Positions 46,801-64,000 of a DNA stretch of 64,000 nucleotides are shown piece after piece (positions within the stretch are counted from its first letter, which is position 1; each line of letters begins with the position of its first letter). Source of the DNA: a virus; IMG/VR virus record IMGVR_UViG_3300025413_000002, positions 3,044 through 67,043 of that record, one strand, 5' to 3'. The position numbers and the translations under genes are program-made. The notes under the pieces are model-generated. The model ran no database searches, was not told the DNA's origin, and saw nothing but the letters and a program-made list of their open reading frames with translations.

Positions 46801-47198
46801 GTTCTACTGTAATGCCGCATTTTACGTAAAGCTCTAGCTTCTAGCTGACGTATGCGTTCTCTTGATAAATCCATAATCTTGCCAACTTCTTCTAACGAAT
46901 GGTCATGATTCATATTGATACCAAAACGCAACCGTAATACTTTTCTTTCCCTGCGTGTTAATGAATCCAAAACATCTTTCATTACTTCTTTAAACTCAGC
47001 TACTTCATACGCATTCTCGGCTGTACTGCGTTCAATCAGCAATTCAATTGTTTCGGGATTAACTGTTTCATATGTAACATCATCTTCAATATAGTGCTTC
47101 GGAATCAAATGCCCAGTTATAGGCGCTCTATCCAAAGCACTAAGAATGTTCTGCTCCGTATAGTCGTTGTAGTGTTTATAAAGCTTACCCACTAACAA
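46770..47198 (-). CDS. Sigma70 region 4 domain protein
   Basis: LDSLTRRERKVLRLRFGI..DHSLEEVGKIMDLSRERIRQLEARALRKMRH, close to RpoD region 4; no region 2. Confidence 0.9.
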   Translation of the reverse strand: MLVGKLYKHYNDYTEQNILSALDRAPITGHLIPKHYIEDDVTYETVNPETIELLIERSTAENAYEVAEFKEVMKDVLDSLTRRERKVLRLRFGINMNHDHSLEEVGKIMDLSRERIRQLEARALRKMRHYSRTCQLIDYLDI

Positions 47199-49015
47199 TC
47201 TCCATAAGTTTTACCAATACCGCTTTCACAATTTAATGGCAAATCTAATGCCCATTTAGGTCGCATCCTCATGCACATCTCAACAAACTCTTGTCCAGCT
47301 TGGGCTTCGCTATCGGGTACGATACAAGCAACCGCATCATGCACAGTCATTACAACCTTGTACTTCCTAGAAATCATAAGCATTTGCTCACCCACAATGA
47401 TTCGGGCTAAGGCTTGACACACATTCTCAACAACTTTCCCGCCGTATATTCTATTAGGGATAGTGGTTTTGCCACGCTTGGTGTCGTACACATATTCATC
47501 TTTCCCGTCGTCATTGGTCTGTTTGCGTAGATTAGGATACTTAATATACAGACCATTAGGAAGCCTAATACCTTTCCTACCTTCAACATACAACACTCCT
47601 TCTCTACCAAAACTACAAGTACCATCCTCAACGATTGCATCTAATACCTTACCCGCTTCTTTCCAAAGTGCAGGTATGCAAGGATATGTTTGTCGATAGA
47701 CCGAGATAATACGACTGGCTTCCTCCTCTTCCACCTCCACGCCAAAAGTCTTGAGTTGCACCCCGAATTTCTTGCTCCCCATGCCGTAGCCAGCCCCGAG
47801 GATGGTGGTTTTCCCCACGAAGCGTTCATCTTTCGTAATGTCTTTCTCTTCCTTGACGTAGATAGCCGACGCCATGATTTTATAAACATCCTCGCCGTTT
47901 TCAAATGCCTCAATTAAATCCTCCTGTCCAGCTAACCAAGCTAGGGTTCGTGCTTCAATTTGTGATGAGTCGCAGTCAATAATTTGATAGCCTTTAGGGG
48001 CACGGATTGCATGCTTTAAACGAGAGCCACGACCCAAGTTCTGCATATTGATTTTGTCATCGCCACCCCAGCGCCCTGTATGAGCCGCATAGTAACGTAG
48101 TGGAATAGGCATAACACCACGCTCTGCGATACCAATAAATCGTTCTGTCCTTGTCTCCTCAAGGGTAGATTTAACACCCAGCCGAGCAGATGCTAATGCT
48201 TGTACCCCGGGTAACGGATGCTCAAGTAGCGCTTTAAACCCTTCATCTGTCTTAGCAAATGCCCATGTTTCCTTACCTGTTGTTGGGCTAATCTTACGTG
48301 GAGGTTCAACCTTACATAGCTCTAGTAATGCGGCAAACTTATCATTACTCATTATTTGGTCACGGTCTACCTCAACCAACTTCATTAAGTCTTCTTTTGT
48401 TTTTTGAATATCGCTTAAGTGTGCTAGCAACACATTAACATCCAACTCCAGCACAGGTTCGCTAAACATCTTAATGGTCAAGTCAATCAGCTTTAACTCA
48501 AATGTCGGGAACTCTTGCATCAATTCCTGAAAGAGTGCATAAGTAAGTTCTACGTCGTTCTTGCAGTATTCACCATATTTCGAAAGTTCATCTGGGGTGA
48601 AATCTAATCGGTGTTTACCCTTAGCGTCTAAGACTTCTGTGCCTTTAACTCCAAGCCCATAATATTTAGTTAAGGCATCCAAGCTACCACCGACTTCGAT
48701 AGTATGTATTGCACGAGCCATTGAAAGAGTGTCCAACCAAGCAGTAGGCTTAATACCAAAAGTCCAAGTAAGTATGCTAGCGTCAAACATTGCATTGTGA
48801 GCAAGCGCCAAAGAATTTCCCCAATCAAATCCTTCAAGAAATTGGCGTGTCTTTTCTTTTGTTCCTGAGAACCATTGTGTTTCTTCATCATTTACCTTTA
48901 CGGCTACGCCGATAACTTCAAACTCATCACCACGCACATACTCCTCTATAGTTTTTTTACTTAAACTGTATGTTTGTGAGTAAAATGATTCAAAATCGAC
49001 TGTAATAATATTCAT
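47192..49015 (-). CDS. DNA polymerase, family A, with 3'-5' exonuclease
   Basis: DFES, AHNAMFD, YCKND exo motifs; HTGRWGG, DSSQIEAR (A), KTTILGAGYG (B), TVHD (C). Confidence 0.92.
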   Translation of the reverse strand: MNIITVDFESFYSQTYSLSKKTIEEYVRGDEFEVIGVAVKVNDEETQWFSGTKEKTRQFLEGFDWGNSLALAHNAMFDASILTWTFGIKPTAWLDTLSMARAIHTIEVGGSLDALTKYYGLGVKGTEVLDAKGKHRLDFTPDELSKYGEYCKNDVELTYALFQELMQEFPTFELKLIDLTIKMFSEPVLELDVNVLLAHLSDIQKTKEDLMKLVEVDRDQIMSNDKFAALLELCKVEPPRKISPTTGKETWAFAKTDEGFKALLEHPLPGVQALASARLGVKSTLEETRTERFIGIAERGVMPIPLRYYAAHTGRWGGDDKINMQNLGRGSRLKHAIRAPKGYQIIDCDSSQIEARTLAWLAGQEDLIEAFENGEDVYKIMASAIYVKEEKDITKDERFVGKTTILGAGYGMGSKKFGVQLKTFGVEVEEEEASRIISVYRQTYPCIPALWKEAGKVLDAIVEDGTCSFGREGVLYVEGRKGIRLPNGLYIKYPNLRKQTNDDGKDEYVYDTKRGKTTIPNRIYGGKVVENVCQALARIIVGEQMLMISRKYKVVMTVHDAVACIVPDSEAQAGQEFVEMCMRMRPKWALDLPLNCESGIGKTYGDC

Positions 49016-49614
49016 TACTTTCCTTGTAAAACCCAATTAGCAAATTCAATTAGCTCTGCTTTACTAGCATCTCTTTTCATACAGTTAGCAAACATACTTA
49101 TTACTTGGATGTTGCCCCTCACATAGCCTTTTTTAGGGTCAATTTTATCTATACTGGGCGACCACTTACTAAATCCAACCCCCCTATCAGCAAACTTTTT
49201 ATTAAAAACAGGACATCTAGAAGGGGCTATTTCTTTTACATATGTTGCTAATTCTGCTACGTTTTTGAAGCCTAAAGGTATGCCTTTCTTTTTCGCCGAA
49301 TAAAAAACTCCTGAAGCTCGTTTGTACCAAATACTATTAGAGGGCACATGCACGCCGTTATTTACTTTAATACTCTGCTTTGCTCTAGGGTTTTTAGCAC
49401 CTGTAAAATCTCTTTTGCTTGCTAGTGTCGGTCTAATTTCTTCTCGTAAACAACCACATGAAGCGGAATGTCCTGAAGTTAAATTAGAACCCGCCACAGT
49501 ACGAACCCTTCCGCAATCACAAACACACTTCCACATTGTTTGATATGTTCTAGGTGCAGTATCAACTACACGCCATCTACCAAACCGTTTACCTTCTAAA
49601 TCAAGTCTTTTCAT
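49015..49614 (-). CDS. HNH-type homing endonuclease
   Basis: GKRFGRW..WKCVCDCG..SCGC N-domain and SPSIDKIDPKKGYVRGNIQVIS..AN..K. Confidence 0.8.
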   Translation of the reverse strand: MKRLDLEGKRFGRWRVVDTAPRTYQTMWKCVCDCGRVRTVAGSNLTSGHSASCGCLREEIRPTLASKRDFTGAKNPRAKQSIKVNNGVHVPSNSIWYKRASGVFYSAKKKGIPLGFKNVAELATYVKEIAPSRCPVFNKKFADRGVGFSKWSPSIDKIDPKKGYVRGNIQVISMFANCMKRDASKAELIEFANWVLQGK

Positions 49615-49646
49615 GTATTCCTCCGTAGCTTACTACGTATTATACA

Positions 49647-49919
49647 TTACTTCTCTAAGCCCTTCATGGTCAGAATGATTCCAACTGCTTCGCTTAGCTT
49701 TTGGTCAGGGTCTACTGCATAGAACTCATATGTCCAATCGGGGCCTCGTTGATTTGGCACATAAGTCCCAATCTCCAAGATGTAACGACTGTTCATAGTC
49801 TTAATAAGACCGATACGATGGTTTACAGTCATACCACGCTCATCATCAGGGATTACTGTTCTAATATCCCCAAACATATTTGTTTCCAACCCTAACCACT
49901 TTAAAATTAACTTTCTCAT
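49647..49919 (-). CDS. Hypothetical protein
   Basis: Likely start MRKLILKWLG at 49919. Confidence 0.55.
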   Translation of the reverse strand: MRKLILKWLGLETNMFGDIRTVIPDDERGMTVNHRIGLIKTMNSRYILEIGTYVPNQRGPDWTYEFYAVDPDQKLSEAVGIILTMKGLEK

Positions 49920-49920
49920 G

Positions 49921-50301
49921 CTATAACCCCCTTGCTTTCTTTTCTGCGTGTTCATACCAAAAACGGATGAAGTTTTTAAGTGCTTCTTTACTTGTGCCGA
50001 TGTGAATAAGCGTGCCATCTTTTTGTATTGCCTCAATGTTTGTAACCTCCATGCCATCGTCGGTATCCCCTTCAATCAGCAATACAACAATGTCTTCTTT
50101 AGTGGCTAGGCGTTTAAGGAGAATCTCTTGCCCCATGCTAATCTTTTCACTTGGTCGCTTCCACTCACCAATAAGAAAATGCCCAAAACGCTCAATCACC
50201 ATATCCAAGTTGGATGGCAACAACTTTGGATTACTAGGGATAACCCCAATAAGGTCGGTGAAGTCCGTATGCTTTGCATCAGGGTTACGCATGGCGGTCA
50301 T
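49921..50301 (-). CDS. Putative PD-(D/E)XK-like small protein
   Basis: PSNLD..IER.G.FLIGEWK...GQ. Confidence 0.5.
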   Translation of the reverse strand: MTAMRNPDAKHTDFTDLIGVIPSNPKLLPSNLDMVIERFGHFLIGEWKRPSEKISMGQEILLKRLATKEDIVVLLIEGDTDDGMEVTNIEAIQKDGTLIHIGTSKEALKNFIRFWYEHAEKKARGL

Positions 50302-50753
50302 TTACTTTGACCCCCTAATAAGTTTCCCAAACTGCTCAAGCCCCCTAATGATGCTTGTTGATATGGGTTCTGTGCTTGTTGAGCCTTTATTCGTTGCTGA
50401 GCCTGATGCGCCTCGTAAGCCATTTGCATTGATTGCATTTGTAGTGCTTGTTGATGGAGAGCCATGTGTTGAGCGTGGGTCTGACCACCCGAAAGCATAG
50501 CGCTCTTTAGCTCTATATCGGATGGTGTCTGTGACTTTGGGTCGAGGAGTTCCTCCATTACTCGTGCATGGAATCTGTTTAAACTTATTTTCTTTTTACC
50601 TTCTTGGTAAGCCGTTTTATCTTCTTCACTTAAATGGTGTTCAAAATCCTCATAGATTGCATCCCATTTACTACGTCCTAAATTAAGGCTGTAGTTAAAC
50701 TCATCAGGGTTGCTTTCCATGCGCTTTAATAGAATCTCTATGGTTGGGTTCAT
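50298..50753 (-). CDS. RMESNP-family protein, paralogue 1
   Basis: ILLKRMESNPDEF. Confidence 0.65.
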   Translation of the reverse strand: MNPTIEILLKRMESNPDEFNYSLNLGRSKWDAIYEDFEHHLSEEDKTAYQEGKKKISLNRFHARVMEELLDPKSQTPSDIELKSAMLSGGQTHAQHMALHQQALQMQSMQMAYEAHQAQQRIKAQQAQNPYQQASLGGLSSLGNLLGGQSK

Positions 50754-51241
50754 AGCACTCTCCTCTTAATCGTTTCTAGTTCTTCTTCGCTGATGCTTGT
50801 GTTTCCTATGTTTAAAGTGACTGCATAAGACGTGTTTGGAAAAGAAGCCCATGTCGTTCCTGTTCCAGCACCACTACTAACTAATGCAGACCCCCCCAAG
50901 CCCGAATTCCCCAAAACCACGTTTGGGGCTGACGTCATAGGAGATGATAGTTCCCTTGCCTCAGCAAGAATTTCTCGCATTACATAGTCATCAAAGCGTT
51001 TGCGTAGGAATTTGCAATAGCCGTCATAGATTGCATTTTGTTCGGCAGCCGTAAGTCCACTTAAATGATTTGGGAAAGGTAATTTATCGCTGCCAGCTTC
51101 TTTTGCAATAACTAATTGCTCGAGTATGCGCCCCCACTTGCCGTAGTTACCACTACTGACATTGAACTCCTCAGGGTTACTTTCCATGCGTTTGAGAATA
51201 ATCTGCACGCCTGTGCAGAACTCAGGGTTTTGTTCTTTCAT
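50750..51241 (-). CDS. RMESNP-family protein, paralogue 2
   Basis: GVQIILKRMESNPEEF. Confidence 0.65.
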   Translation of the reverse strand: MKEQNPEFCTGVQIILKRMESNPEEFNVSSGNYGKWGRILEQLVIAKEAGSDKLPFPNHLSGLTAAEQNAIYDGYCKFLRKRFDDYVMREILAEARELSSPMTSAPNVVLGNSGLGGSALVSSGAGTGTTWASFPNTSYAVTLNIGNTSISEEELETIKRRVL

Positions 51242-51533
51242 GCGTTAATCCTTTTAGTATCTCATCTAACATTGTTAGGTTCGTTTCATTGATAACCAAT
51301 GTAACGCCTCCAGCCTCATTTATTTTTTGTAGTTCTCGTTCTTGTAGAGCCGTTGGCTTGTTGTCGCCAGCTTTGCACTCTATGGCTAGGAATTTACCGC
51401 GCACGCAACATATGATGTCGGGGATTCCTGAACGCCCAAACCCAGTCATAACTGGGTAGAAATAATATGCGCCGTATTGCTTGAGCAACTTAACGCAATT
51501 CTCTTTTACTTTCTTTTCGGGTGTGCTTGCCAT
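51222..51533 (-). CDS. VRR-NUC domain nuclease (resolvase-like)
   Basis: PEKKVK, GIPDII, FLAIECKA..KPTALQ, AGG. Confidence 0.88.
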   Translation of the reverse strand: MASTPEKKVKENCVKLLKQYGAYYFYPVMTGFGRSGIPDIICCVRGKFLAIECKAGDNKPTALQERELQKINEAGGVTLVINETNLTMLDEILKGLTHERTKP

Positions 51534-51539
51534 GCCACG

Positions 51540-51567
51540 ATTATAACATGGTTCTTTACTCTGTCAA
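51540..51567 (-). promoter_or_regulatory. Sigma70-type promoter TTGACA-16-TATAAT
   Basis: Perfect consensus boxes just upstream of the VRR-NUC ATG, so the transcript is probably leaderless or nearly so. Confidence 0.8.
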
Positions 51568-51604
51568 AGAGTTTATTATATTTATTTTATGGGGGTTAAT
51601 ACTA

Positions 51605-51769
51605 GGTGGGAATGAGGGGTTAGTATATTAGCACGCCCCTCGTCGTGTTCGTGAAAGGTGGGTAGTGAGGAATCAACCTTTGTGCCTAGACCCCAGCTAC
51701 CACGACAACTCGCTTACCGCATATACAAGACATCATAAGCTATTGTCTTTTACGAAATGCTCTAGGCAC
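51605..51769 (+). ncRNA. Candidate multi-pseudoknot structured element
   Basis: At least seven complementary segment pairs in an intergenic gap; G-U wobbles favour the + strand. Confidence 0.55.
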
Positions 51770-51777
51770 TTAGTTCT

Positions 51778-52170
51778 TTACTTCCTACGCTCAAGTATAG
51801 GTAGGTTTGCTTCTGTCGGAATGTAGATAACTTGGTTTTGAGTATGTTCCAAATTGTTTACAAACAGATAACGCAAATAATCTTCGTTGTTCTTTAAGCT
51901 ATCGCCAATAATCTGATTCGCTTTGGCTACGCCCTTAGCACGCTCTACTTCAGCATTAGCTAGCATTGTAGCGGAATCCATCTTAGCTTGCGCTTCTTGC
52001 ACCATCACTTGCTTACTGAAATTGGCTTTCGCCAACTCAGCTTCGCCCTCCATCTTTTGGTGGTAAACATTATACATAGGCATACCATACATACAACTAC
52101 CTACACCCGATGCAATAACAAACACAACCAATGCACCTAACTTGATAAGTGATTTTAAATCATCATTCAT
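51778..52170 (-). CDS. Membrane-anchored SPFH-like coiled-coil protein
   Basis: TM helix, EAELAKA/EAQAK repeats, YLRYL, VIYIPTEANLPILE. Confidence 0.65.
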   Translation of the reverse strand: MNDDLKSLIKLGALVVFVIASGVGSCMYGMPMYNVYHQKMEGEAELAKANFSKQVMVQEAQAKMDSATMLANAEVERAKGVAKANQIIGDSLKNNEDYLRYLFVNNLEHTQNQVIYIPTEANLPILERRK

Positions 52171-52637
52171 TTTACTTTCTCCATGTTAGCAATCTCACGC
52201 TTTAGATACCACTCGGCTTTCTTTAAGTCCTCAATCTTCATGCCTTTGTAGTGCGCACGAGATACATACTTCACAACATTACCCAAGTTATAACCCAACT
52301 GCTTAGCTTCGATAAAATCAATCGTTTCAATACCACCAGTTTTGTAGTGGCTTGGGCTATTCACATTGTCCACGCTAAAGTCCATGACTTTATATTGATT
52401 ACCGCTAACGCCTTGGAATACTCCAGCACCCACCGCCTTAACTGTTTCACTACCAATTCTAGCTTTCGGTTTCTTTTTAACTGCAACATCACCAGCCTTA
52501 AACAATTTGTGCTTGACTACATACACATAGTTCACATCTACACCTGTTGCCTTGGCAATCTCGGTAGGCTTTGCACCTTGGTTACGCTTTAAGAAAGCCT
52601 CGACCTTTTGTGCTTTTGTATACGCTTTACGACCCAT
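52167..52637 (-). CDS. HTH fused to a DUF3310 (SaV-like) domain
   Basis: KPTEIAKATGV N-terminus; VNSPSHY..GGIETIDFI..NVVKY..RA..EDLKKAEWYL. Confidence 0.8.
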   Translation of the reverse strand: MGRKAYTKAQKVEAFLKRNQGAKPTEIAKATGVDVNYVYVVKHKLFKAGDVAVKKKPKARIGSETVKAVGAGVFQGVSGNQYKVMDFSVDNVNSPSHYKTGGIETIDFIEAKQLGYNLGNVVKYVSRAHYKGMKIEDLKKAEWYLKREIANMEKVK

Positions 52638-52638
52638 C

Positions 52639-52809
52639 TCACTTCTCCTTGTTGATAAAATTAACTAACACTTTTCGCATCTCGGCTTGCCATTTATGCG
52701 AATACTTCCCCTTAAAAAACTCTACTATCTCTGTGGATAGTCTGATACTGGTGCTGATAAGTGGGGGGTTCTTTCCTTTCCCCCTCGTTCTCTTTTTAAC
52801 TTCTTCCAT
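52639..52809 (-). CDS. BrnA antitoxin-like ribbon-helix-helix protein
   Basis: RGKGKNP..TSIRLSTEIVEFFK...WQAEMRKVL. Confidence 0.7.
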   Translation of the reverse strand: MEEVKKRTRGKGKNPPLISTSIRLSTEIVEFFKGKYSHKWQAEMRKVLVNFINKEK

Positions 52810-52810
52810 A

Positions 52811-52999
52811 TCAATCCTTCTTTCCAAACTCGTAATCGGTTCGGTATTCAGATGGTGGAATCCAACCATACTTACGCCAAACCTTTTGCACATCTGCACC
52901 GCCCTGATATACAAACTTTGAATTTGTATCAATAGCCAATGGTAGTTCTGCTTTTGGCTTTTCTAGTTCCTGTTTGAATATATTTTTTAAACCTAACAT
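52811..52999 (-). CDS. Small early protein
   Basis: GGGAG SD; ATG lies within the palindrome; WRKYGWIPPS. Confidence 0.7.
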   Translation of the reverse strand: MLGLKNIFKQELEKPKAELPLAIDTNSKFVYQGGADVQKVWRKYGWIPPSEYRTDYEFGKKD

Positions 53000-53015
53000 T
53001 GTTAGTTCTCCCTAG

Positions 53016-53879
53016 TTAAACAACCACATATGAATCTTCGGTAGCACGATAACCCATACCCTCAACTACTGTATTTACTGCAACCAACTTCAACATACCT
53101 AACTTCAACTTCAACTCTTGAGGCAACTGCTCAGTAGGGCACATAGTAGTCCCGCCCTTGTTTCTAATGATGTATTCAGTATCCCTAATTAGAATGGTAG
53201 ATGCCTCGCCAGCATGAAATGCCTTCTTGAGGGCTTCATTTATTTGTAGCTTCTCATGGGCTTCCATATACTTAGCGCAACAATCTTTACCCTCTTGGTT
53301 TAGAGTAGCTACAAAGTTATCCCAATTATCCCTAACATACTGAGCCATCGTAGATTGCAAACCGTTGTAATAACCCCTTGTATCTTGGTTAGCCTTACCC
53401 ACTAAGCGATTCAGATTATCACTTACCTCGCTTAGGGCTTTCTCAAAATACTCATCAGTAGTCTTAGGACTGAAATGCTTTTTAACCAAACGCAAAGCCA
53501 CATCTAACTTAGTAGTCTTGGTGCATGACTGTCTGTCTTTCGTTGCTGAGATTCGGTCATTACCCACTACCCATTGGTCGCCCCGACTATAACTTCGGTC
53601 ATAGGCAATATAGCCAAGCATCTCACGCTTTTCATAAACGCCAAATGTTGTGGCTAAACGAACTCGAGTCCCATCAGCCAATCTTTCATGATAGTTTCCT
53701 CTTGTTGCAACAAAAGTCCAATGGGGATTGCGATTGATTAGTTCGGTCAGCAAGGTAGCCAAGTGGGGAATAACACCGCCCAACTGTTCACCCCTGTTGT
53801 TCTCCGCATACTTATCAAAGTCTACGCTAGGAAATTTATCCTTCGGGATACACTTCATCTCATCACTCATTTTCTGCAT
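53016..53879 (-). CDS. Hypothetical early protein
   Basis: 287 aa, C-terminal LP.ELKLKLGMLKL..VEGMG. Confidence 0.7.
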   Translation of the reverse strand: MQKMSDEMKCIPKDKFPSVDFDKYAENNRGEQLGGVIPHLATLLTELINRNPHWTFVATRGNYHERLADGTRVRLATTFGVYEKREMLGYIAYDRSYSRGDQWVVGNDRISATKDRQSCTKTTKLDVALRLVKKHFSPKTTDEYFEKALSEVSDNLNRLVGKANQDTRGYYNGLQSTMAQYVRDNWDNFVATLNQEGKDCCAKYMEAHEKLQINEALKKAFHAGEASTILIRDTEYIIRNKGGTTMCPTEQLPQELKLKLGMLKLVAVNTVVEGMGYRATEDSYVVV

Positions 53880-54132
53880 TACCTTTCAATAGTTTAATTA
53901 ACGCCAACGCTTCTTTCCTGTGTTTAATCCTATCTGCTACTAAGTCCATACCTTGCCATACTTGATACCGCCCTCGTCTTGGCATTATTAGTCTTGGTGC
54001 ATTAAATATGTTTTGGTATGTGTTTTCAAACAAGCTATTGATTAGTTGCATCTTAGTAGTGCCCATAGATTGTGCCAATGCTTGCGTATAGGATTTACCC
54101 ATCTGCACAAACACCTCATCGCTTACGCCCAT
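53863..54132 (-). CDS. Hypothetical early protein
   Basis: 89 aa, coupled to neighbours. Confidence 0.55.
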   Translation of the reverse strand: MGVSDEVFVQMGKSYTQALAQSMGTTKMQLINSLFENTYQNIFNAPRLIMPRRGRYQVWQGMDLVADRIKHRKEALALIKLLKGNAENE

Positions 54133-54482
54133 TATCTTTTCCTCACTTTCGGCTTAGGCGCACCCAACAACTTACGCATTACCGCTTGCTCATACTCTTG
54201 TCGATACAAACTATGTAACTTTTCTTGCAACAATTTTTTCTCATACTCAGTTAGATAAAACTCGGGTATGGCTAAACTTAATTCTTCACCATCTTCTACT
54301 AACTGGCTCATTGGTCTAGTAGGTAGAAAGTGATACCACTTGCTGTCGCTAATTGAATCTCCGTAGTTCTCTATATCACCAAACACAAACTCAAGCGGGT
54401 TAGAATCCATACGCTGAAGCAACAACTCAACACCCTTACTTACTGTATCTTCTTTCATTTCTCTCCCACCTTTCTGATACAT
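54132..54482 (-). CDS. RMESNP-family protein, paralogue 3
   Basis: GVELLLQRMDSNPLEF. Confidence 0.65.
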   Translation of the reverse strand: MYQKGGREMKEDTVSKGVELLLQRMDSNPLEFVFGDIENYGDSISDSKWYHFLPTRPMSQLVEDGEELSLAIPEFYLTEYEKKLLQEKLHSLYRQEYEQAVMRKLLGAPKPKVRKR

Positions 54483-55234
54483 ACTTGGTCGCCATCGTGA
54501 TACAACTCCGCTTTACCTTCATGCAACGCTTCAAATACTTTCATGGTTATCAGCTTATGAAAGCGCAACTCTAATACTGCTTTAACCCACAAACCTAACA
54601 ATGTTAGGATTACCGCAAATAAAAACATATCTGAATAAGTTAGTTCAATCATTTAATTCTCCTGTAATAACTTCGCATACCCTCTAGCTTCCTTAGCCGT
54701 TAGGTATTGTTTAATAATCGCAACTGGATAAGTGTTTCTATAAGTTCCCACATAAGTTTGAGCCTTGACCACCGCCCAGTTCCCCTTCTTAATCATATGC
54801 GCCATGTATACATAGTTTGGTCTAGGTTCATCTGTGTTATCCCACATCACTTCCTCTCCTCAGGTTTACCAGCTAGCTTGCCAATGCGATAGATAGAGTC
54901 AGGCAATATGGTTATGGTGAATTTGCCCGCATCGTCTTGCTCCCACACATGGAATGTATTAGGTGCATTAGAGTTATATTTCTCATCAAACATCTCAGCT
55001 TTAGTTAGCATCTCACCTAGCCTTAGGGCATCCTCAGTATCTACAATGTAGCTTTTGTAGCCGAGGTTAATCACACACTTACTCATAGTCGAAATCTCCT
55101 GTGTCGATTTTGTCTTGCAATAGGACAATCGCTTGCATCCAACCCGCCCTAAAATACTGACGAGCCATGTTTCCAAACGAGCCAGCTTCCACCTCAGGGA
55201 ATAAATCATCAAACTCTTCCTCCCATCTTTCCAT
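54455..55234 (-). other. Small early ORFs 54455-54652 (TM), 54653-54850, 54847-55086, 55079-55234
   Basis: Coupled ORFs with SDs; 55079-55234 (MERWEEEFDD...) translated by hand. Confidence 0.55.
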
Positions 55235-55245
55235 TTCATATCCTC

Positions 55246-56451
55246 CTAGTTCACATAGATAGTCTTACCAACGGGAGCAACCGCATTACCCCCACCAACA
55301 ATCGCCCACAACATCGGCACATCTTGCCACTCCTCAGGTGTTCCCCAATCACCGATATATCCATCAGTTAGATTGATGATGCACTCAGGCTTGATACTTT
55401 GTTCCTTCAAGTGGTGCGCCATACATCTTGGGTCTGTGCCACCACCGCCCATTACTTTAGTCTCACTAACAATGTTAGATACTGCTGAACCCTCATACTG
55501 CTCATGGTTTGCTACTGACGCATCCCAATACACTAGGTCAATCTTCTGTGGCGATACCTCATTCACAATGCCTTGCACTTCACTCAAACAATCAGCAATC
55601 TCCCTAGCACCTTGACTACCGCTAGTGTCAATGCCAATCGCAATATGTCCAATCTTCTCACTCACCATGCTAGGCATATAACAATCCATCGCTAAGTATC
55701 TGCGATTAGGTCTGCGCCATGATGATGAATCACGACCAGCGCATACAGTCTTAACAAACTCACGCAACTGTTCACGCCAATCCACCTTAGGGTTTAACAA
55801 TTCATCTAGCTCACGATTCATACCCATACCGCCCTTGCCTTGCATTTTGGTTTGAGCTATCTGTCCTGAGCGCAACGCTTGGTCAATGTCCTTCTCGAGT
55901 TCCTTCTTGACTGCATCGGTTAGGTCTTGCGCCCCTTCCCAATCATGGTCATCGAACCCATCGCCACCGCTAAACCCTTCCTCTTTGAGAATGTCATACA
56001 CTTGCTTAGTATTCATACCCTCGAACCGCTTATCAACCAAGCCTATTACCTTGCCATCCTTCATTGGCATAGCAATCACATCTTGGTTAGGGTCTAGCTT
56101 TACTAACTGCAAATTGATTACATAATCACAAGCGGCATTAGTTAATTCCTTGTCTTGCTCTGCTAGCTTGCGCCATGTAAACAAATGACGATACGCTTTG
56201 TGCAACGCCTCATGCAATACAACGAACGCTAACTCCTTATCGTCTAACATCTTGACGAACTCACGCCCATATATCTCATCACGACCATTGGTGCAAGCAC
56301 TAGGAATATCATCACGCACATAAGTCTTACCGACCATGAGGATACCTGACCACAATGCAAACCTAGCATTACGCATCAAGGCAATCTTCACCTTCTTGAG
56401 TCTGCGTTCTTCCTTGCCATCGCTTACAACTTCGTTTGTCTTATCTAACAT
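55246..56451 (-). CDS. Metallopeptidase-like (DUF2201) plus VWA domain protein
   Basis: TNG, HEALH, NAACDYVIN; MIDAS DTSGS, GGGTD, LTDG. Confidence 0.88.
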   Translation of the reverse strand: MLDKTNEVVSDGKEERRLKKVKIALMRNARFALWSGILMVGKTYVRDDIPSACTNGRDEIYGREFVKMLDDKELAFVVLHEALHKAYRHLFTWRKLAEQDKELTNAACDYVINLQLVKLDPNQDVIAMPMKDGKVIGLVDKRFEGMNTKQVYDILKEEGFSGGDGFDDHDWEGAQDLTDAVKKELEKDIDQALRSGQIAQTKMQGKGGMGMNRELDELLNPKVDWREQLREFVKTVCAGRDSSSWRRPNRRYLAMDCYMPSMVSEKIGHIAIGIDTSGSQGAREIADCLSEVQGIVNEVSPQKIDLVYWDASVANHEQYEGSAVSNIVSETKVMGGGGTDPRCMAHHLKEQSIKPECIINLTDGYIGDWGTPEEWQDVPMLWAIVGGGNAVAPVGKTIYVN

Positions 56452-56461
56452 TGTTAGTTCC

Positions 56462-56614
56462 CTATATCAAATCACTCATCTTAGAAATACCTCGTTCATA
56501 AAGTAGCTTACGCAACTTACCCATAGCATGGTATTGAATCTGCCTGACTCGCTCTCTGCTTATGGTGTCCCGCTTAACTACCTTACGCTTTTTGGGCTTG
56601 GCTTCTTCGCTCAT
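56462..56614 (-). CDS. 50-aa peptide resembling sigma70 region 4.2 (not in ORF track)
   Basis: MSEEAKPKKRKVVKRDTISRERVRQIQYHAMGKLRKLLYERGISKMSDLI; ATG overlaps the ATPase stop. Confidence 0.7.
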   Translation of the reverse strand: MSEEAKPKKRKVVKRDTISRERVRQIQYHAMGKLRKLLYERGISKMSDLI

Positions 56615-57678
56615 AGCAAATCTTCATTCTTGGCAACCCACTCAGTAAACTTCTTAGAGCTAAATGCAATCGCTTGCTTAGTCGGGGCTTTAGCTACATT
56701 GATTGCAAAGCACGCTTGCCACTCGCTTTCAAATCTCTCCATGTATTGCATGAAGGTATCAATAGAGTTCTTATCAATCTTAGCAATCGCACCGAATACA
56801 GTAATCGCACAAGCACCAGCACTCTCAGGCACATGAGACTTTTTAGGGTCATTGAGGGTGTCCTCCCATGTAGGCAACTGGTCTGCATACTCGATATACG
56901 CTTGCATATCACGACTTGCTGACTCACCGACTGCGCCTGTCATCGCTGAAATCATAGTGTCTTGGTTCAACTTATCACGCTTTCTAACAATGTTAGATAC
57001 AGTCTCAAGTGAACGAGGCGATACAAATGCCGTTTGCACTTTCTTAGGGTTATAGATATACGGGTTATCATTCTGCCCTTCTTCGGTATAGCTAGCCATA
57101 GAGTGAGGGAATTGGCGAACCCATGCACATACCTCAGGTGCAATATCATTATTGATAGCCCATGCCAACCATTCCTCAGCGTTAGGTTTGCGAACTGTAA
57201 CTGGCACGATACGATTGCGAGTATGCGCTTTAAGACTATCGCCTACACCATCACTACCTAGATTGCCCGTCATGAAGATGATTGAATCAGGGTTTACTTC
57301 CACATCACCCAATCGTGGGTTTGCTTTCTCGAGTAATGGATGGAGCATATTCTTAACTGGCTCAGCACCCTTAGTGAACTCATCTAACATTGTTATAACT
57401 GGCTTACCTGTGTGCATCTTGAATCTGCGATTAGGGTAATAAGCCGTTGTGCGAGTTTCATGGTCTACTACTGGCATAGCAATATCGCCCAAGTCCATGT
57501 TCGGCACATCAATGTAGGCAATCTCATGAGATGGTAGCTTTGCGCCCAAAGCCTTAAGCAAAGATGATTTACCAATTCCTGGCTCGCCTTGTAATAGATA
57601 GCGATTCTCAGGGGTGGCGAGTAATAACTCAGATGCCTCAGCCAATGTAATTGTCTTACCAAAATGTAATTCAGCCAT
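56611..57678 (-). CDS. AAA+ ATPase (MoxR-like)
   Basis: GEPGIGKS Walker A, MLDEF Walker B, TGN sensor 1, RNR finger, SPRS sensor 2. Confidence 0.9.
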   Translation of the reverse strand: MAELHFGKTITLAEASELLLATPENRYLLQGEPGIGKSSLLKALGAKLPSHEIAYIDVPNMDLGDIAMPVVDHETRTTAYYPNRRFKMHTGKPVITMLDEFTKGAEPVKNMLHPLLEKANPRLGDVEVNPDSIIFMTGNLGSDGVGDSLKAHTRNRIVPVTVRKPNAEEWLAWAINNDIAPEVCAWVRQFPHSMASYTEEGQNDNPYIYNPKKVQTAFVSPRSLETVSNIVRKRDKLNQDTMISAMTGAVGESASRDMQAYIEYADQLPTWEDTLNDPKKSHVPESAGACAITVFGAIAKIDKNSIDTFMQYMERFESEWQACFAINVAKAPTKQAIAFSSKKFTEWVAKNEDLL

Positions 57679-57769
57679 TTCTACTTTTCCTTTTGTGTTT
57701 ATCTAACATTGTTATATTTACTGCGCTCTTTACTACAACTACTTACTACTTTATTATTTTTATACATCT

Positions 57770-57798
57770 ATTATATCAAACCGCACCACGAAATACAA
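57770..57798 (-). promoter_or_regulatory. Early promoter TTGTAT-17-TATAAT
   Basis: Shares CTTGTATTTCGTGGTGC with the 61301 promoter. Confidence 0.85.
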
Positions 57799-58039
57799 GT
57801 TATCTAGTCAGTCTTGGACTAGAGATAAATATGCTCTCGCTCTTTTTAAACTCATAAATCTTTTAACCTTTATCGCTTCCTTTATTGGATTACCACTAGA
57901 GTATGTTGTTATCCTATTGCTTCGAACCAATACCAAGTCAAATAACAAATAGGGGAATCTCGGGAAGCTAGGTAGCACCCAATAAGACTCACGCCAACTA
58001 CTTTCCCATTGAACTCCGCTTGCACCCATGCCTCTCCCC

Positions 58040-58927
58040 TTAAAATAAATGCGCCCAAGAATCTTTTTTGATAGTTCCCAACGGCAACTCGACCACATCA
58101 AAGACTGTATCTTTATGGCGAGCAAAGATTAGATTGTTCATCGCATACTTCACACTTTCAGGTGTTATCGAGTAGCCCATGTTCTTCCAATAGTGGCGTT
58201 TGCCAAACTGTTTAATAATAAGTAGGCACGCCTTGTATCGCATCTCGTGGTCATCTGACCCAATCATGGCAAACATACTCTCAACCTGTTCTTTGTTGCG
58301 TAGTGCAATATCGTTTGGTAGCTTGGGTCTAACCTCATTACCATATCTATCGCCCTCACCAAACACACGAACGAACTCAGCATCACTTATTGGTTCACTA
58401 TCGGTCAGCTTAACCATACCCATAAAGAACTTAGTAAACTCTGCATAGTGCTTTCTAACATTGTTAGCTTCTTTGCGATTCACACGATATACATGGTCAG
58501 GCTCTACATTTAAAGGCAACAAGCGACCATTGACCCAGCCAAGCATCAGCCCACTTCCTTGAAAGCGATACTCGCCACCATTGACACCGACTACTAAGTT
58601 TGACTGATTGACCCTACATCTAACTGGCAACACATCTTCAATAAACTGTGCCGTAGTTGAACTGCTCCAACCGCCTGACTTGAGTTCAATATTTCCATCT
58701 GGATGAAAAGTAACAACTGGCGTGCGATAGCATATGCACTCAATCGCTCCGCTTGTTAAGTTCTTAGCCATATAAAACTCGCTAGCCCGATGCCGATGTC
58801 CCAAGGCAATACGCCCACCATTTGCACCACCTCCACGAATAGGCTTAGTGCTTTCGAACTTGGCTAGTGCCTCGTTGTAATTGCGTAGGAATGGTATCCC
58901 TGTGTTTCTTGCGCTTCCGTATCCCAT
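58040..58927 (-). CDS. Hypothetical early protein
   Basis: 295 aa, AGGAG SD, YRTPVVTFHPDG. Confidence 0.75.
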   Translation of the reverse strand: MGYGSARNTGIPFLRNYNEALAKFESTKPIRGGGANGGRIALGHRHRASEFYMAKNLTSGAIECICYRTPVVTFHPDGNIELKSGGWSSSTTAQFIEDVLPVRCRVNQSNLVVGVNGGEYRFQGSGLMLGWVNGRLLPLNVEPDHVYRVNRKEANNVRKHYAEFTKFFMGMVKLTDSEPISDAEFVRVFGEGDRYGNEVRPKLPNDIALRNKEQVESMFAMIGSDDHEMRYKACLLIIKQFGKRHYWKNMGYSITPESVKYAMNNLIFARHKDTVFDVVELPLGTIKKDSWAHLF

Positions 58928-58942
58928 CTCGTTTCTCCTTAG

Positions 58943-59407
58943 TTATCTAACAATGTTAGTTTCGTCTGTCTTAACTTCTATCTCTGTGTTGCGTCTACCC
59001 AATAACCCGCTTGCCTCAAAGCACAATAGCGAACGGCAATAAAACATATCAAAGTCCACATCCTCACCAAAGTTATCCTCCTCGATATCGTCTGTTTCCT
59101 CACCGACTCGATTAAATAACCCTGATATACCCTCGACCCCTTGCATCTGCTCCCATAGCTCGTTCCACGCCATGACCGCATCATAGTCGGGATACCATTT
59201 CCATTGTTGTGCATGGAATACAAACCGCCCACAATCCCACCCAATGCACTTTTGGTCTTGTTCGTTTGACATCATCAACTCATAGAACTTGGATAGCTTG
59301 ATAAGCCCAATCATTTCCTTGAACTTGGCAACACCCTCCTCCCGAGTAGATGGGTAATTAAACGCATCCACGCTAAACCCTCCAGCCACATCACTTCGAT
59401 AGCCCAT
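58943..59407 (-). CDS. Hypothetical early protein
   Basis: MGYRSDV...WKWY...RVGEETDDIE. Confidence 0.75.
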   Translation of the reverse strand: MGYRSDVAGGFSVDAFNYPSTREEGVAKFKEMIGLIKLSKFYELMMSNEQDQKCIGWDCGRFVFHAQQWKWYPDYDAVMAWNELWEQMQGVEGISGLFNRVGEETDDIEEDNFGEDVDFDMFYCRSLLCFEASGLLGRRNTEIEVKTDETNIVR

Positions 59408-61224
59408 TACTGACCCCCTAACTTAGTCGTAAACCCAGCATAAAACGCATCCACATAAGCAATCTCAATAGTCATAAACCCATCCATCTTAAAAGGATTC
59501 CATTCCTTGCCTTCTGCATATCTGACCCATGACTTGAGTGCCTTTTCGTGGATTGTTAATTGTTCATTGGTTAGTTCGCCTTCTTCATAGCTAAGCGTTA
59601 CACCCCAACTACCCCTACTGTTTGCTTTTATATGTTGTTCTTTCGGTATCTTTCTTAGCTCCCAACCCCATAACTTCATATCACTCTCCCTTCGTATTCT
59701 CGTAAACTCGCCTACTCACCCGTAATTAGCTTCTCTTTGCCTTTGAAATACCCCGCAAGAAATGCACCTTGCACAAGATAGCGCCATTGGTGGTAGTCCT
59801 CGCTTATTACTTTCGGGTTATCTGCTGGTGCTTTCATCCACAAGTTCTTATACATATCAGCATTGTTCTGCTCTAGCTGGTTTATAAACTCACGCCACTT
59901 TTGCCCAGCATCATCTTTGATTGTCATTCTCATCTTCCTTTCCCATTTAGCTTCTAGTCGTTTTGTTTTAGTTAGTCCCATTACTCCCCCGCTTTTTCTA
60001 ACATTGTTAGGTTATGTTGTGCGAGCAACTGCCACGCATCTTTACTGACTAGGGAATTACCCCAGTCGCTATCGTCTTGTATCACTTGTAGTGAGTAAGA
60101 TTGAATAGCCGTAATCAGGAACGCTTCTCCCAACGGGTCTAACTTGGCACTCTTTACTATTTTGTCTATCGTTTTCATGCAAACTCCCTTATCCAATCTA
60201 TGTAAACTTCATTCAAACTAAGCCACCTAGCACTACGCTTCCTATCAGGCTTATCTAATGGGTAATTCAATAGCATCTCATCACCCTTGCACCGCACCAA
60301 TACAAAAAACTCAGGCTTATCAGGTTTTCTATATAGTTTTACTACCCTCATGTTGTCCTCTGTTCCTAGCTTAGCTAGTCCGTTTCGGGTTTAACTGCTT
60401 TAACTGGGATAAGTCTGTAATCATCATGTAGTTCGATTTGTTTATGGGTGCAATAGTGAACTTGCGCTTCTTAGCTTCCACATCACCGCACCGCAAACAA
60501 GTCTGATAGCCTAGCACTACACGCCTTGCATCTACTTCCTCACCACACTCACACTCAAAGCCATATAACATTGTTAGTTCCTTTCACTCGTCTGCCTTCG
60601 TAAATTTCAAATAAAACCCAGCCATAAATGCTTCTTGGTAGGCTTTGTTTATGGCTATTTCTACATGACCAGTAAAGCCTTTACCCCACACATTTTCTTT
60701 TTTCCATATGTCCCACTCTCTAGCCATAACCCTACTCATTACTAAATAGTCGTCTGCCATAGTTAATCTCCATAGTTAGTCATAGCTAACTTAAATGCTT
60801 CTAACTCATCATCTGCATAGAGCATCATGTAGTCCCTCATGGTCATACCGCCAAACTTGGCTTGCCACTCGACCCTGTATCTACCCTCACCCTGTTGCAT
60901 AGCTTTGACCTCTAGCACTTTGAAATTGGTATGTAATCTAGGTGTCAAGTTAAGGTCTTTGTTCGGGTTGGGTGTTCGTAGTCGCATATAGGCTCGGGGA
61001 TAAGTAAGGGTTAGTGTTATGTAGTGTGACGAAATAATGTCTGCTATCTAAGCTACGCAATATGGTTGTGGATTCTCCTCTTTCCCATATCTCGTAGGTC
61101 TTACCCTTAATTTTTAGTATGTCCCCAGTTTGCCACTTTATACTCATATCGCACCTCGAATTAAGTTTGCTATAAAAGCTAGTAGGAGTAGCACTAGCAT
61201 GAAATCAAAGAATTTATCTAACAT
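59407..61224 (-). other. Array of small early ORFs (59407-59679, 59712-59981, 59981-60178, 60175-60351, 60371-60571 Zn-finger, 60584-60760, 60763-60987, 60950-61147, 61144-61224)
   Basis: Contiguous coupled ORFs with SDs; CECG...CLRC in the 60371 ORF. Confidence 0.6.
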
Positions 61225-61300
61225 TGTTAGGTTCTCCCTTTCGTTTTGGTTGGTTAGTATTGTTAGGAACTGAATATGTAATGCTCTATCTAATATAACC

Positions 61301-61329
61301 AGTATAGCATAGTGCACCACGAAATACAA
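61301..61329 (-). promoter_or_regulatory. Early promoter TTGTAT-17-TATACT with extended TG
   Basis: Conserved with the 57770 and 62431 promoters. Confidence 0.85.
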
Positions 61330-61363
61330 GTAATCTAGTCATGGTGTGATTAGAGAAAATAGG

Positions 61364-61690
61364 TAATGTTAGGAAAAATGAGGGTAATGTTAGGAGTAAT
61401 GTTAGCAGAAAGTTAGGAATTTGCTAACAATATAAAACCCAATAAACATAAGGCTTTGGTAGGAATGTTAGGAGTAATGTTAGATTGTTAGTAAAATTTA
61501 TATATATATGGCTTCCCCTAGCTTTCTAGCATATGCTTTTCTTCTTTGCACTTGCTGAGAACCTCTGCCAAACTTTTACCCCCATTCATAGGTCAAAAAA
61601 AAGCTAACATTCTAACAATACGCCAAGTCCTTGATTTTAAACGCAAAAAACAAAACGCACCACTAACATTACAAAATATTTCCTAACAAT
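61364..61690. repeat. Array of palindrome half-sites around an AT-rich core (origin-like)
   Basis: AWTGTTAG-type units at about 61364, 61385, 61397, 61463, 61475, 61484; inverted CTAACAWT at 61424, 61604, 61612, 61663, 61683; TA run near 61499-61509; IHF consensus at 61624-61636. Confidence 0.75.
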
Positions 61691-61784
61691 ACAAAATCTA
61701 GGGCTATCAGCACTTCCGTTCTTCCTTTCGGAACTATCACAAAACTATCATAAAATTATTTTTATGGAATCAAAAAGTAAATTG

Positions 61785-61817
61785 GAAAAAGAAAAACCCC
61801 CCAAAGGCGGGGGGTTT
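61785..61817 (-). terminator. Terminator after the first early gene
   Basis: AAACCCCCC...GGGGGGTTT hairpin with an A-rich left flank (U tract on the minus strand). Confidence 0.7.
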
Positions 61818-61850
61818 GAGGAAAACCTAACAGTGTTAGGTTTTTACTTC

Positions 61851-62366
61851 TTACAACATATTTAAATCAACTCCCAACGCTTGCAACGCTTCGCTGATTT
61901 TCTGTTGAGCCTTGACAATCTTAGGGTCTAAGCCTGTCTGTTTGCCATTGAATTTCCACAGGGCGGTCAATTCCTCAATGTTGCGTAGCATTGGACTGCG
62001 GGCATGGATAGCACCTGAACCCTCACCCTCACCCTCTGAACTCTCACCCTCAACGCTTGGAACTTCACCAAACAAACCCAATGCCTTAGCGTTTTCCTTA
62101 CCATCAGCTTGCACCCTTGCCCATACTGTTGAGGGGTTAGAATGTCCCGCTTGCTTCATTGGCTTGTAAAACTCTTGCTTCTCAGCTTTGACTACCTTGC
62201 CCGCTTCGCTAGCGTCTGACCTGTCAATGTCATACCACTTGGCGGGGAACTTACCCTCTACTGCTAGCTGATTGAGTGCTTCAGCATACTTCTTAACTGC
62301 GCCATACTGTCTGCCTACTGCTTCAGCTACTTGGTTGCGTAATGCTACTAGATTGATTGTTGTCAT
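61851..62366 (-). CDS. First early gene, 171-aa hypothetical protein
   Basis: AAGGTG SD, own promoter and terminator. Confidence 0.8.
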   Translation of the reverse strand: MTTINLVALRNQVAEAVGRQYGAVKKYAEALNQLAVEGKFPAKWYDIDRSDASEAGKVVKAEKQEFYKPMKQAGHSNPSTVWARVQADGKENAKALGLFGEVPSVEGESSEGEGEGSGAIHARSPMLRNIEELTALWKFNGKQTGLDPKIVKAQQKISEALQALGVDLNML

Positions 62367-62430
62367 GATGTATTCACCTTATAAACTATTATCTAATTGG
62401 GTAGATAACTAACCCTTACTGCATGATTCA

Positions 62431-62459
62431 AATATAGCAAATCGCACCGCAAAATACAA
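62431..62459 (-). promoter_or_regulatory. Early promoter TTGTAT-17-TATATT with extended TG
   Basis: Third copy of the CTTGTATTT.G.GGTGC promoter. Confidence 0.8.
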
Positions 62460-63058
62460 GTTTGTAGGAAACTAAAAGTAAAAAGTAAAATCTAACATTG
62501 TTAGGTATATCCACGAACCCCCACCCCCAAAAAATAAAACAAGGAATCCTACATCAGCCCATACTCTATAATCCGCGCAACCGATGCCGGTACTTAAGAA
62601 TACCCCCCACCCCCTATTCATTTTGCACCACAAGATACACATCGTGTGTATAGAAACACCCCCCTTGCTCTTTTTGGGTCCCCCGAAAACCCCACCCCCA
62701 TATGTATAAAAAATTGAGAAAAGTGTACATATTAAAAAAACATGTATAAAAAAGTTTCCCGAACGGGAAGAATTGATGAAAAAGTGTGCAAATTTAGGAA
62801 AATATTCCCGAACGGGGTATTTTGTAATAAAAAGTAAGTCGATAGAAACCCTACATAAAGTTAGGGTTCAGTGCTACTAGACAAACTAAATGACTCATTA
62901 ATGAGTCCGTATGTGGGTTAAAGCCTTATTTATGAGTCAACCAAACTGCTAATAGCCCGCACAATATGCATAAAATGTCGACAAAAATGTACATATCCCA
63001 ACAATATGTATACAAAACTGCAAATACTAGACATATTAAAAACCGTCTAGTAACAATA

Positions 63059-63506: not shown

Positions 63507-64000
63507 ATGAACACAATTCAAGTTGACCTAAATAAGTTGCCACCTGACGTTAGGGAGTGGGTTAACTTCGAAATCACGGCATCAAACGCATCTGATATAG
63601 CCGTCAAGTTACTCAATAAAACGCATGTAGTTATGGACGGCATTCGCGTGCATGGGTATTTCTGCAGTGAAACTGAGTCTTTAGTTGTGTCCGGCAAGGC
63701 ACCGGACTGGTTGCAGATAATGGTTCATGAGTCCTGCCACCGTGACCAATACATAGAAAAGGTTCCTTTATGGAACCGAAAAGTCGAGTTAGACGGCGAG
63801 AACTACGACCCACTTAATCTATTTTGGGATTGGCTCAATGGCGCCAGAGAACTAAAACCTCGCAAGCTCAGAGAGGCTATGCTGCATGCGATGCGTCTGG
63901 AGCTAGACTGCGAGATGCGAGCTGCTGCGAAGATTGATACTTTCTATTTGCCGATAAATACAAAAGAATACATCCAGAAGGCCAACGCCTACGTGTACCT
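63507..64000 (+). CDS. HExxH zincin-like protein, 3'-truncated
   Basis: GGAG SD; MNTIQVDL...GYF...MVHESCHRDQ...LELDCE; frame open to the window end. Confidence 0.7.
   Translation, partial: MNTIQVDLNKLPPDVREWVNFEITASNASDIAVKLLNKTHVVMDGIRVHGYFCSETESLVVSGKAPDWLQIMVHESCHRDQYIEKVPLWNRKVELDGENYDPLNLFWDWLNGARELKPRKLREAMLHAMRLELDCEMRAAAKIDTFYLPINTKEYIQKANAYVY

Follow-up and report, generated by a model that had tools for sequence, protein, structure and literature searches.

Phages have reportedly been found by Rusinov et al., in 2018, to avoid restriction sites over their whole genomes. T5-like phages undergo Type I and Type II restriction only when sites are present in the first-step-transfer region, and how their second-step DNA withstands Type I, II, and III systems is presented as still open (PMC10644984). 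Murciaviruses escape a Type I system when their leading region is devoid of the motif, as stated in a 2025 study, which proposes from this one Type I motif that restriction systems select sub-genomically on the first-injected DNA (PMC12455610). The murciavirus leading region is described there as hypervariable and as presumably holding anti-defence genes. The window analyzed here is a stretch of 64,000 nucleotides, positions 3044-67043 of the 67,043-bp viral contig IMGVR_UViG_3300025413_000002 (genome of 66.9 kb), and it contains a segment of 11,172 bp (51402-62573) from which several short palindromes are missing. This segment is coextensive with the early operon and is probably the stretch of the genome that host restriction enzymes meet first.

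The locus is reminiscent of those of T5 and BF23 (Tequintavirus), in which sites render the phage sensitive when they lie in a first-expressed region of roughly 10 kb and many are tolerated elsewhere (PMC10644984). It departs from T5 in several respects. The phage is unrelated, ~67 kb long, without T5-like genes by PHROG annotation, and its early and late genes have a divergent layout; the distal recovery is graded, with no step-like boundary seen at an injection stop; and the purge is complete for at least seven types of site, which is known from the sequence alone. As in the leading region of Autographiviridae (the logic of T7 gene 0.3/Ocr and of the Marinomonas murciaviruses), restriction selection appears concentrated on the first-injected DNA, and natural relatives differ in the presence of motifs in the leading region, as reported for murciaviruses (PMC12455610). 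The murciavirus case, however, concerns one Type I motif and is experimental, whereas the present one concerns many Type II-like palindromes and is deduced. In contrast to T7, no phage RNA polymerase or Ocr-like protein was detected, and the late genes are oriented against the presumed entry. The elimination of short palindromes typical of Type II systems is shared with genome-wide avoidance, and GATC in this phage, as well as CCWGG and GGWCC in its relatives, follows that classical pattern; most of the avoidance, however, is polar and falls within only one sixth of the genome. The principle is already known. The instance is new and unusually clean, and its source is a family of freshwater phages that is unrelated, uncultured, and apparently abundant. 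It features many Type II-like specificities, their turnover between lineages, and a measurable polarity.

Recognition Sites Missing from the Early Operon

Direct counts in the segment give zero for each of GTAC, ACGT, GGCC, CCGG, CGCG, and GCWGC, vs. 208, 134, 69, 47, 21, and 174, respectively, in the rest of the window. The absence of these six sites had been reported in an initial annotation made from the sequence, and its flanking coordinates are exact: the last CGCG on the left is at 51398, and CGCG, CCGG, and GTAC return on the right at 62574, 62587, and 62590. GGWCC (0), CCWGG (1), and GCSGC (1) are likewise depleted in the segment, as are further words: CCTGC, ATTAAT, and CTGCAG do not occur, and CCAGA, ACAGC, and ACCGT occur once each. 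Other palindromes, counted as controls, are found at normal rates within the segment (AGCT 51/397, CATG 50/203, CTAG 50/220, TGCA 60/391); the corresponding figures for GCGC and TCGA are 22/149 and 22/70.

A k-mer comparison, a kind of check proposed in the same annotation, was run on 2,689 classes (k = 4-6), the segment being compared with the remainder. It reveals a regional depletion, in which the top-ranked classes are GTAC (p 4.7e-18), GCAGC/GCTGC (3e-15), and ACGT (7e-12). As a null model, the 25 early open reading frames (ORFs; 9,783 nt) were subjected to 500 synonymous-codon shuffles that preserve the proteins and the codon usage. The shuffle means, with the minimum in brackets, are 25.3 (12) for GTAC, 23.5 (12) for ACGT, 15.9 (7) for GGCC, 11.7 (3) for CCGG, 20.4 (10) for CGCG, and 6.2 (0) for GCWGC, all observed zero times. 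In the middle and late ORFs, GTAC, ACGT, and GGCC stand near the shuffle expectation. Composition or chance as the cause of the hole is excluded by these shuffles and by the equal G+C content of the segment (0.422) and of the sequence elsewhere (0.423).

The avoidance of two palindromes is not regional, because CGCG is rare everywhere and GATC is missing from the whole 66.9-kb genome (0 sites). The late ORFs contain 8 CGCG vs. 31.8 expected, and the CGCG gap alone is not significant (p about 0.23); the initial description of all six sites as frequent in the late region does not hold for this one. TCGA displays a reversed pattern when the ORFs of window 2873-51241 are compared with those of 51402-62366: it is found 9 times vs. 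25.1 expected in the middle ORFs and 18 vs. 36.5 in the late ones, with 21 vs. 23.0 in the early ones.

A One-Sided Gradient

The seven avoided sites were pooled and counted per 1-kb bin. Their density is 21, 18, 25, and 12 per kb on the side of the edge that faces the terminase; past the edge, it is 0 for 11 kb, save for one CCWGG. The values per kb then run 6, 2, 3, 7, 8, 4, 10, 9, 12, and 13, and reach ~20 by 23-29 kb. The first sites to return distally are GCWGC at 51089, ACGT at 50932, GGCC at 49742, and GTAC at 49499. Against synonymous shuffles, the pooled sites number 1 vs. 92.6 expected in the early ORFs (ratio 0.01), 20 vs. 44.0 in the next 4 kb (proximal middle, 0.45), 79 vs. 99.8 in the distal replication genes (distal middle, 0.79), and 440 vs. 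507.7 in the late ORFs (0.87, summed from per-site shuffles). The signal is therefore a one-sided gradient, with a sharp start at the early-operon head, running along early transcription. The next 4 kb belong to a transition zone (47192-51401, minus strand) that encodes a Hjc-like resolvase, two paralogous unknowns, an HNH endonuclease, and a DNA polymerase; site counts there were made on the ORFs spanning 47192-51241. The graded recovery suggests a kinetic process, in which entry is slow or transcription-assisted while a protective function accumulates, with no strict pause.

Different Sites Lost from the Same Place in Relatives

A query with the DUF2201 protein of the early operon retrieved 31 loci from viral contigs, five of which were taken as whole records (G001-G005). 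G001 (66.6 kb) is collinear with the window genome, at 65-88% nucleotide identity. At the corresponding position, it lacks ACGT over 11.4 kb and GCGC over 8.2 kb, with further holes for GCWGC, CCWGG, and CCGG, and weaker ones, below threshold, for CGCG, GGCC, and GGWCC. It retains GTAC (290 genome-wide, 16 in the domain), and GATC is also missing from its whole genome. In G005 (G+C 51%), GATC is absent from 11,081 bp, the only regional GATC hole in the set, and partial ACGT and GCWGC holes are present. No regional hole was found in G002, G003, and G004. Region-confined depletion is observed in 3/6 genome-scale records (binomial test). Genome-wide, CCWGG is absent or limited to a single site in G002-G005 (single in G003), and few or no GGWCC sites occur in G003 and G004; GATC, CCWGG, and GGWCC seem to be outside whatever protects the rest of the genome.

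The shorter loci amount to 26; in 12 of them, exact palindromes are too sparse to set the limits of the domain, and the other 14 were tested. Gap inspection of 18 loci revealed 11.8 kb without GTAC in L004, ACGT-free stretches of 11.0 and 9.7 kb in L005 and L007, which nevertheless possess 48-52 GTAC, and 11.5 kb without AGCT in L008. In the aligned blocks of the early region, 0/8 GTAC sites of G001 are conserved in the window genome, vs. 74/194 outside; reciprocally, 0/13 GCGC sites of the window are conserved in G001, vs. 41/100 outside. Different lineages have purged different words from the same place. This lineage-specific purging bears the mark of selection by host restriction repertoires that change, and not of composition or shared ancestry.

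A megablast search of 50,697 phage records with the segment returned no match, and the closest cultured relatives are distant. By tblastn, the primase-helicase shares 29.7% identity with that of Pseudomonas phage Rollin, and the terminase 47-59% with those of DSL-LC04, Pelagibacter phages HTVC027P and HTVC023P, and Planktothrix phage Pag-Yong1. DSL-LC04 was dropped as a comparison genome, its gene layout being different. Pag-Yong1 (OL906435.1; L052, L053) is 65,014 bp long, with 68.9% G+C, 0 GTAC, and no regional hole. Its layout is the same, with a polyvalent protein, a VWA and ATPase pair, and early and late operons that diverge. A gene annotated as S-adenosylmethionine (SAM) lyase, a known anti-restriction type, lies close to the head of the early one.

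The Abrupt Edge and a Possible Genome End

The edge is marked by a conserved G+C-rich element of 23 nt (62573-62595, minus strand), which is located upstream of the first promoter-like element and holds the first CGCG, GCGC, CCGG, and GTAC. In G001, 19/23 of its positions are identical, and it holds the last GCGC before the hole of that genome; a scan of viral contigs for the element matched G001 only. We infer that it may be a packaging or terminus site. It is flanked by three C5-N-C5/6 tracts (62518-62699, at 62518, 62603, and 62690, minus strand), G-rich on the early sense strand. A G5-N-G5/6 tract just upstream of the first palindrome is found in 11/14 relative sequences searched, and reaches lineages with only 42-45% marker-protein identity. 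It is lacking in L004, L007, and L011, and in Pag-Yong1 it is located beside the array, with the strand not in register. As a guess, it might serve in packaging or terminase recognition, or as an origin.

The early and late operons are divergent, and a ~0.9-kb intergenic region separates the early head from the late start; across it from the edge lies the module of HNH, putative small terminase, TerL, and portal. The Logan contigs of four out of 24 runs, all four from freshwater metagenomes, break at 62619-62906. The word depth at 62680-62813 is 5-10x that of the flanks in these runs, with many divergent loose ends, and evidently reflects an element common to several co-occurring relatives rather than a terminus. 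A 127-bp terminal repeat of the contig is most likely an assembly overlap, because it falls inside an ORF.

Proposed Order of Entry and Alternative Explanations

The abrupt start at the operon head, next to the terminase module, the polarity, and the different site sets of relatives argue for selection on first-exposed DNA. The packaged DNA would have a fixed end at about 62.57-62.60 kb of the window, from which it would enter the same way as early transcription runs. Until protection exists, any site within the first 11 kb would be cut, and lineages facing a given Type II system would lose all copies there. With the accumulation of early products, DNA arriving or becoming accessible later would be safer, and sites would be progressively tolerated. 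In phage lambda, the last-packaged end is injected first. If packaging began between the two operons and ran on through the late genes, the early-operon head would be packaged last and, by analogy, injected first. The hole is also in line with the T5-like and murciavirus results (PMC10644984, PMC12455610).

Several observations weigh against selection on first-exposed DNA. The initial annotation had proposed a staged injection starting near 62.5 kb, with anti-restriction or anti-defence genes among the early ORFs. This proposal is supported in part. The hole it rested on is real, regional, restriction-like, placed at the early operon, polar, and recurrent in relatives, but the expected genes did not appear: PHROGs (30 ORFs searched, E<=0.01) identified known anti-restriction families in 0/27 early ORFs, and Pfam (37 ORFs searched) in none. 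Foldseek found no match in the PDB (E<=0.001) for the models of two early proteins (171 and 154 aa, see below), nor in BFVD for that of the former; no sequence match to the Ocr, ArdA, SAM lyase, or Dar types was obtained in the early ORFs, nor a fold match for the two models. No phage RNA polymerase was found, but just a sigma-70 region 4 protein. The late genes read towards the proposed leading end, and T7-style transcription therefore cannot pull in the whole genome. The contigs of the runs, which break at repeats at 62.62-62.9 kb, reveal no terminus. The sole Pfam match of TerL is Terminase_6C, which is not enough to establish packaging of the cos type, and headful packaging, if true, would contradict the model. 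Among the 14 shorter loci tested, 3 gave any hit, one of which is AATT, with short flanks and low power. The tetranucleotide signature of the early region correlates with the rest at r 0.34-0.45, vs. 0.67 between middle and late. Finally, the gradual recovery misfits a strict two-step transfer of the T5 type.

Such a transfer, in which ~11 kb would enter and, after a pause during which the early proteins act, the rest would enter protected, is unlikely, although it survives best among the alternatives. The window genome has a hole of ~11 kb, as does G005 (the 11,081-bp GATC gap), and that of G001 measures 8-11 kb; this is near the ~9.7-10 kb of the first-step-transfer region of T5 and BF23 (PMC10644984), and the proximal edge is abrupt. 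The distal side, in contrast, is a gradient, where sites return at different places and the next 4 kb are at 0.45 of expectation. By family name in the PHROG annotation, none of the 27 early ORFs is a homologue of the T5 pre-early proteins (A1, A2, dmp). Moreover, the assembly holds the region once and shows no evident long terminal repeat, although a collapsed repeat would look the same.

Alternatively, the whole genome would enter together, and a co-delivered protein or a base modification would shield all but the early region, left bare for the host RNA polymerase. This is highly improbable, as it cannot easily explain the bareness of exactly the early operon. To our knowledge, a shielding that spares one operon and fades in gradually has no precedent. 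Dar proteins, furthermore, are known to act on Type I systems and not on 4-bp Type II enzymes, which counts against this explanation. In its favor, the last late gene encodes a large polyvalent protein (2,072 aa; 31785-38003, plus strand), the C-terminus of which resembles a PHROG family that bears the annotation "DarB-like antirestriction" (E 4.8e-45), the sole Dar-like hit; DarA and DarB of P1 protect DNA in cis (PMC12455610). The N-terminal 1,400 residues of the polyvalent protein resemble LPD39-type polyvalent proteins (weak LPD39 match), and it is possibly a co-injected counter-defence protein. No methyltransferase or base-modification gene was found among the ORFs searched, a set that does not comprise every small late ORF.

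The weakest alternative, a mosaic origin in which the early module would come from a lineage avoiding these sites genome-wide, so that the hole would reflect ancestry and not position-specific selection, has in its favor that only 5.5 of the 11 kb align to G001, that many promoter-proximal early ORFs are patchy among relatives, and that the early tetranucleotide signature is the least similar, but it is very unlikely given the same G+C inside and outside, a GATC avoidance common to the whole genome, an edge that coincides exactly with the operon head in two genomes whose avoided sets differ, the lineage-specific losses in aligned orthologous blocks (0/8 and 0/13, see above), a graded recovery extending into the conserved replication genes, and the fact that no relative examined avoids GTAC, ACGT, or GGCC genome-wide, with the exception of the distant Pag-Yong1, without GTAC.

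Genes, Promoters, and Palindromes of the Early Operon

Every plausible ORF of the segment is on the minus strand, the series being presumably read from a promoter-like element at 62428-62462, and most early ORFs are of unknown type. The recognized ones are a MoxR-type AAA+ ATPase (56611-57678, minus strand), a DUF2201 metallopeptidase/VWA protein (55246-56451, minus strand), a helix-turn-helix-DUF3310 protein, a BrnA-antitoxin-like protein, and a small ORF resembling a PHROG "protease" family. The first two form a core early pair, with a 50-aa ORF in between. The DUF2201 protein has a relative in 28/28 relative sequences and a further one, at 23% identity, in Pag-Yong1. The first early gene (61851-62366, minus strand) encodes a protein of 171 aa and is followed by a terminator-like hairpin (61794-61817). 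This protein has 202 unannotated metagenomic homologues, and its AlphaFold2 model is all-helical, with a predicted local distance difference test (pLDDT) score of 81.3. By position only, it may be considered an analogue of T7 gene 0.3. Another early protein of 154 aa (58943-59407, minus strand) is acidic (isoelectric point of 4.3; 30 D+E vs. 15 K+R). Its unannotated family counts 130 metagenomic homologues, its AlphaFold2 model is alpha/beta (pLDDT 85.8), and it is, speculatively, a DNA-mimic candidate.

A conserved promoter-like element of 35 nt (TTGTAT-17-TATAAT or similar) has its first copy at 62428-62462 (minus strand; TTGTAT-17-TATATT), and other copies at 61298-61332 and 57767-57801. 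The consensus scan did not list these three elements, and their promoter label is our own reading of the sequence. Between the second of them and the terminator of the first gene, about 520 bp (61330-61850) are without a convincing ORF and bear tandem half-site repeats, AATGTTAGGAGTAATGTTAG, at 61386 and 61464. A perfect extended sigma-70 consensus promoter (51540-51567, minus strand; TTGACA-16-TGnTATAAT, 12/12), found where the hole ends distally, precedes the start codon (ATG) of the Hjc-like resolvase gene by only 6 nt, a spacing that would imply a leaderless transcript at the early/middle junction. It was rejected as a boundary marker, because it is not conserved in G001.

A 13-bp palindrome, CTAACANTGTTAG, forms an array of 15 copies (51266-62504; 12 exact, 3 with one mismatch). 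No exact copy is found in the genome outside this span, which agrees with the initial observation that the limits of the palindromes and of the hole match. Nine of the 15 copies sit 0-132 nt upstream of a start codon, and 5/15 lie more than 50 nt inside an ORF; the array may consist of operator-like sites marking the early region. Arrays of 13-bp 6-N-6 palindromes are lineage-specific. CTAACANTGTTAG is that of the window genome, G001, G002, and G005, TCATATNATATGA that of G003 and L028, TCCCACNGTGGGA that of G004 and L032, CTCACANTGTGAG that of L023, and GTTCAGNCTGAAC that of Pag-Yong1, with 21 copies. This variation looks like that of operator sites co-evolving with a dimeric binding protein. 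An N4-like idea, in which the palindromes would be hairpin promoters for a virion RNA polymerase, was dropped, the 2,072-aa protein showing no RNA polymerase signal, no PDB sequence match, and an LPD39-like N-terminus.

Genome Layout and Host

An uncultured, lytic freshwater phage of roughly 67 kb is the best explanation of the source. The minus-strand run is prolonged down to 38.2 kb by replication genes, among which are those of the Hjc-like resolvase, an HNH endonuclease, DNA polymerase, exonuclease, helicase, and primase-helicase. Three ORFs (50298-50753, 50750-51241, and 54132-54482) are paralogues sharing an N-terminal LKRMESNPEEF-like motif, for which no family match was found. Among the replication genes, a 142-aa protein (46770-47198) exhibits a strong sigma-70 region 4 domain (E 1.7e-19), and is likely a phage factor redirecting the host RNA polymerase to the late genes. 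The late genes, on the plus strand, code for the terminase, portal, capsid, and tail proteins, a 927-aa ejection-type protein, and the 2,072-aa large polyvalent protein. The late operon starts at 63507-64000 (plus strand) with a 216-aa ORF, and past the window end come an HNH endonuclease gene, an ORF of 212 aa, and TerL; the portal gene overlaps window 1-2346. The RNA-gene search detected no transfer RNA and no Rfam family. Our guess for the host, from the freshwater source, the G+C of 42%, and passages in PMC8262939, is a bloom-forming cyanobacterium rich in restriction systems.

Significance for the Phage Family

The logic of sub-genomic selection is unusually legible here, with at least seven site types gone from one 11-kb operon, a sharp start, and a graded end. 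This offers a prediction, from sequence only, of the leading end and of the entry polarity in uncultured phages. The avoided site sets are a read-out of the restriction repertoire of unknown hosts, and relatives with different purged sites constitute a natural comparative panel for finding protective early genes. It is conceivable, although doubtful, that the phage family possesses a broad early mechanism shielding more than 50 kb of apparently unmodified DNA from many Type II enzymes, which may be the same unsolved phenomenon as the restriction insensitivity of T5 in an unrelated lineage. The agents of such a shielding may be the pair of MoxR-type AAA+ ATPase and VWA/metallopeptidase, the product of the first early gene, or a nucleoprotein on the palindrome array. 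If true, the gradual reappearance of sites would itself register how quickly protection sets in along the entering genome.

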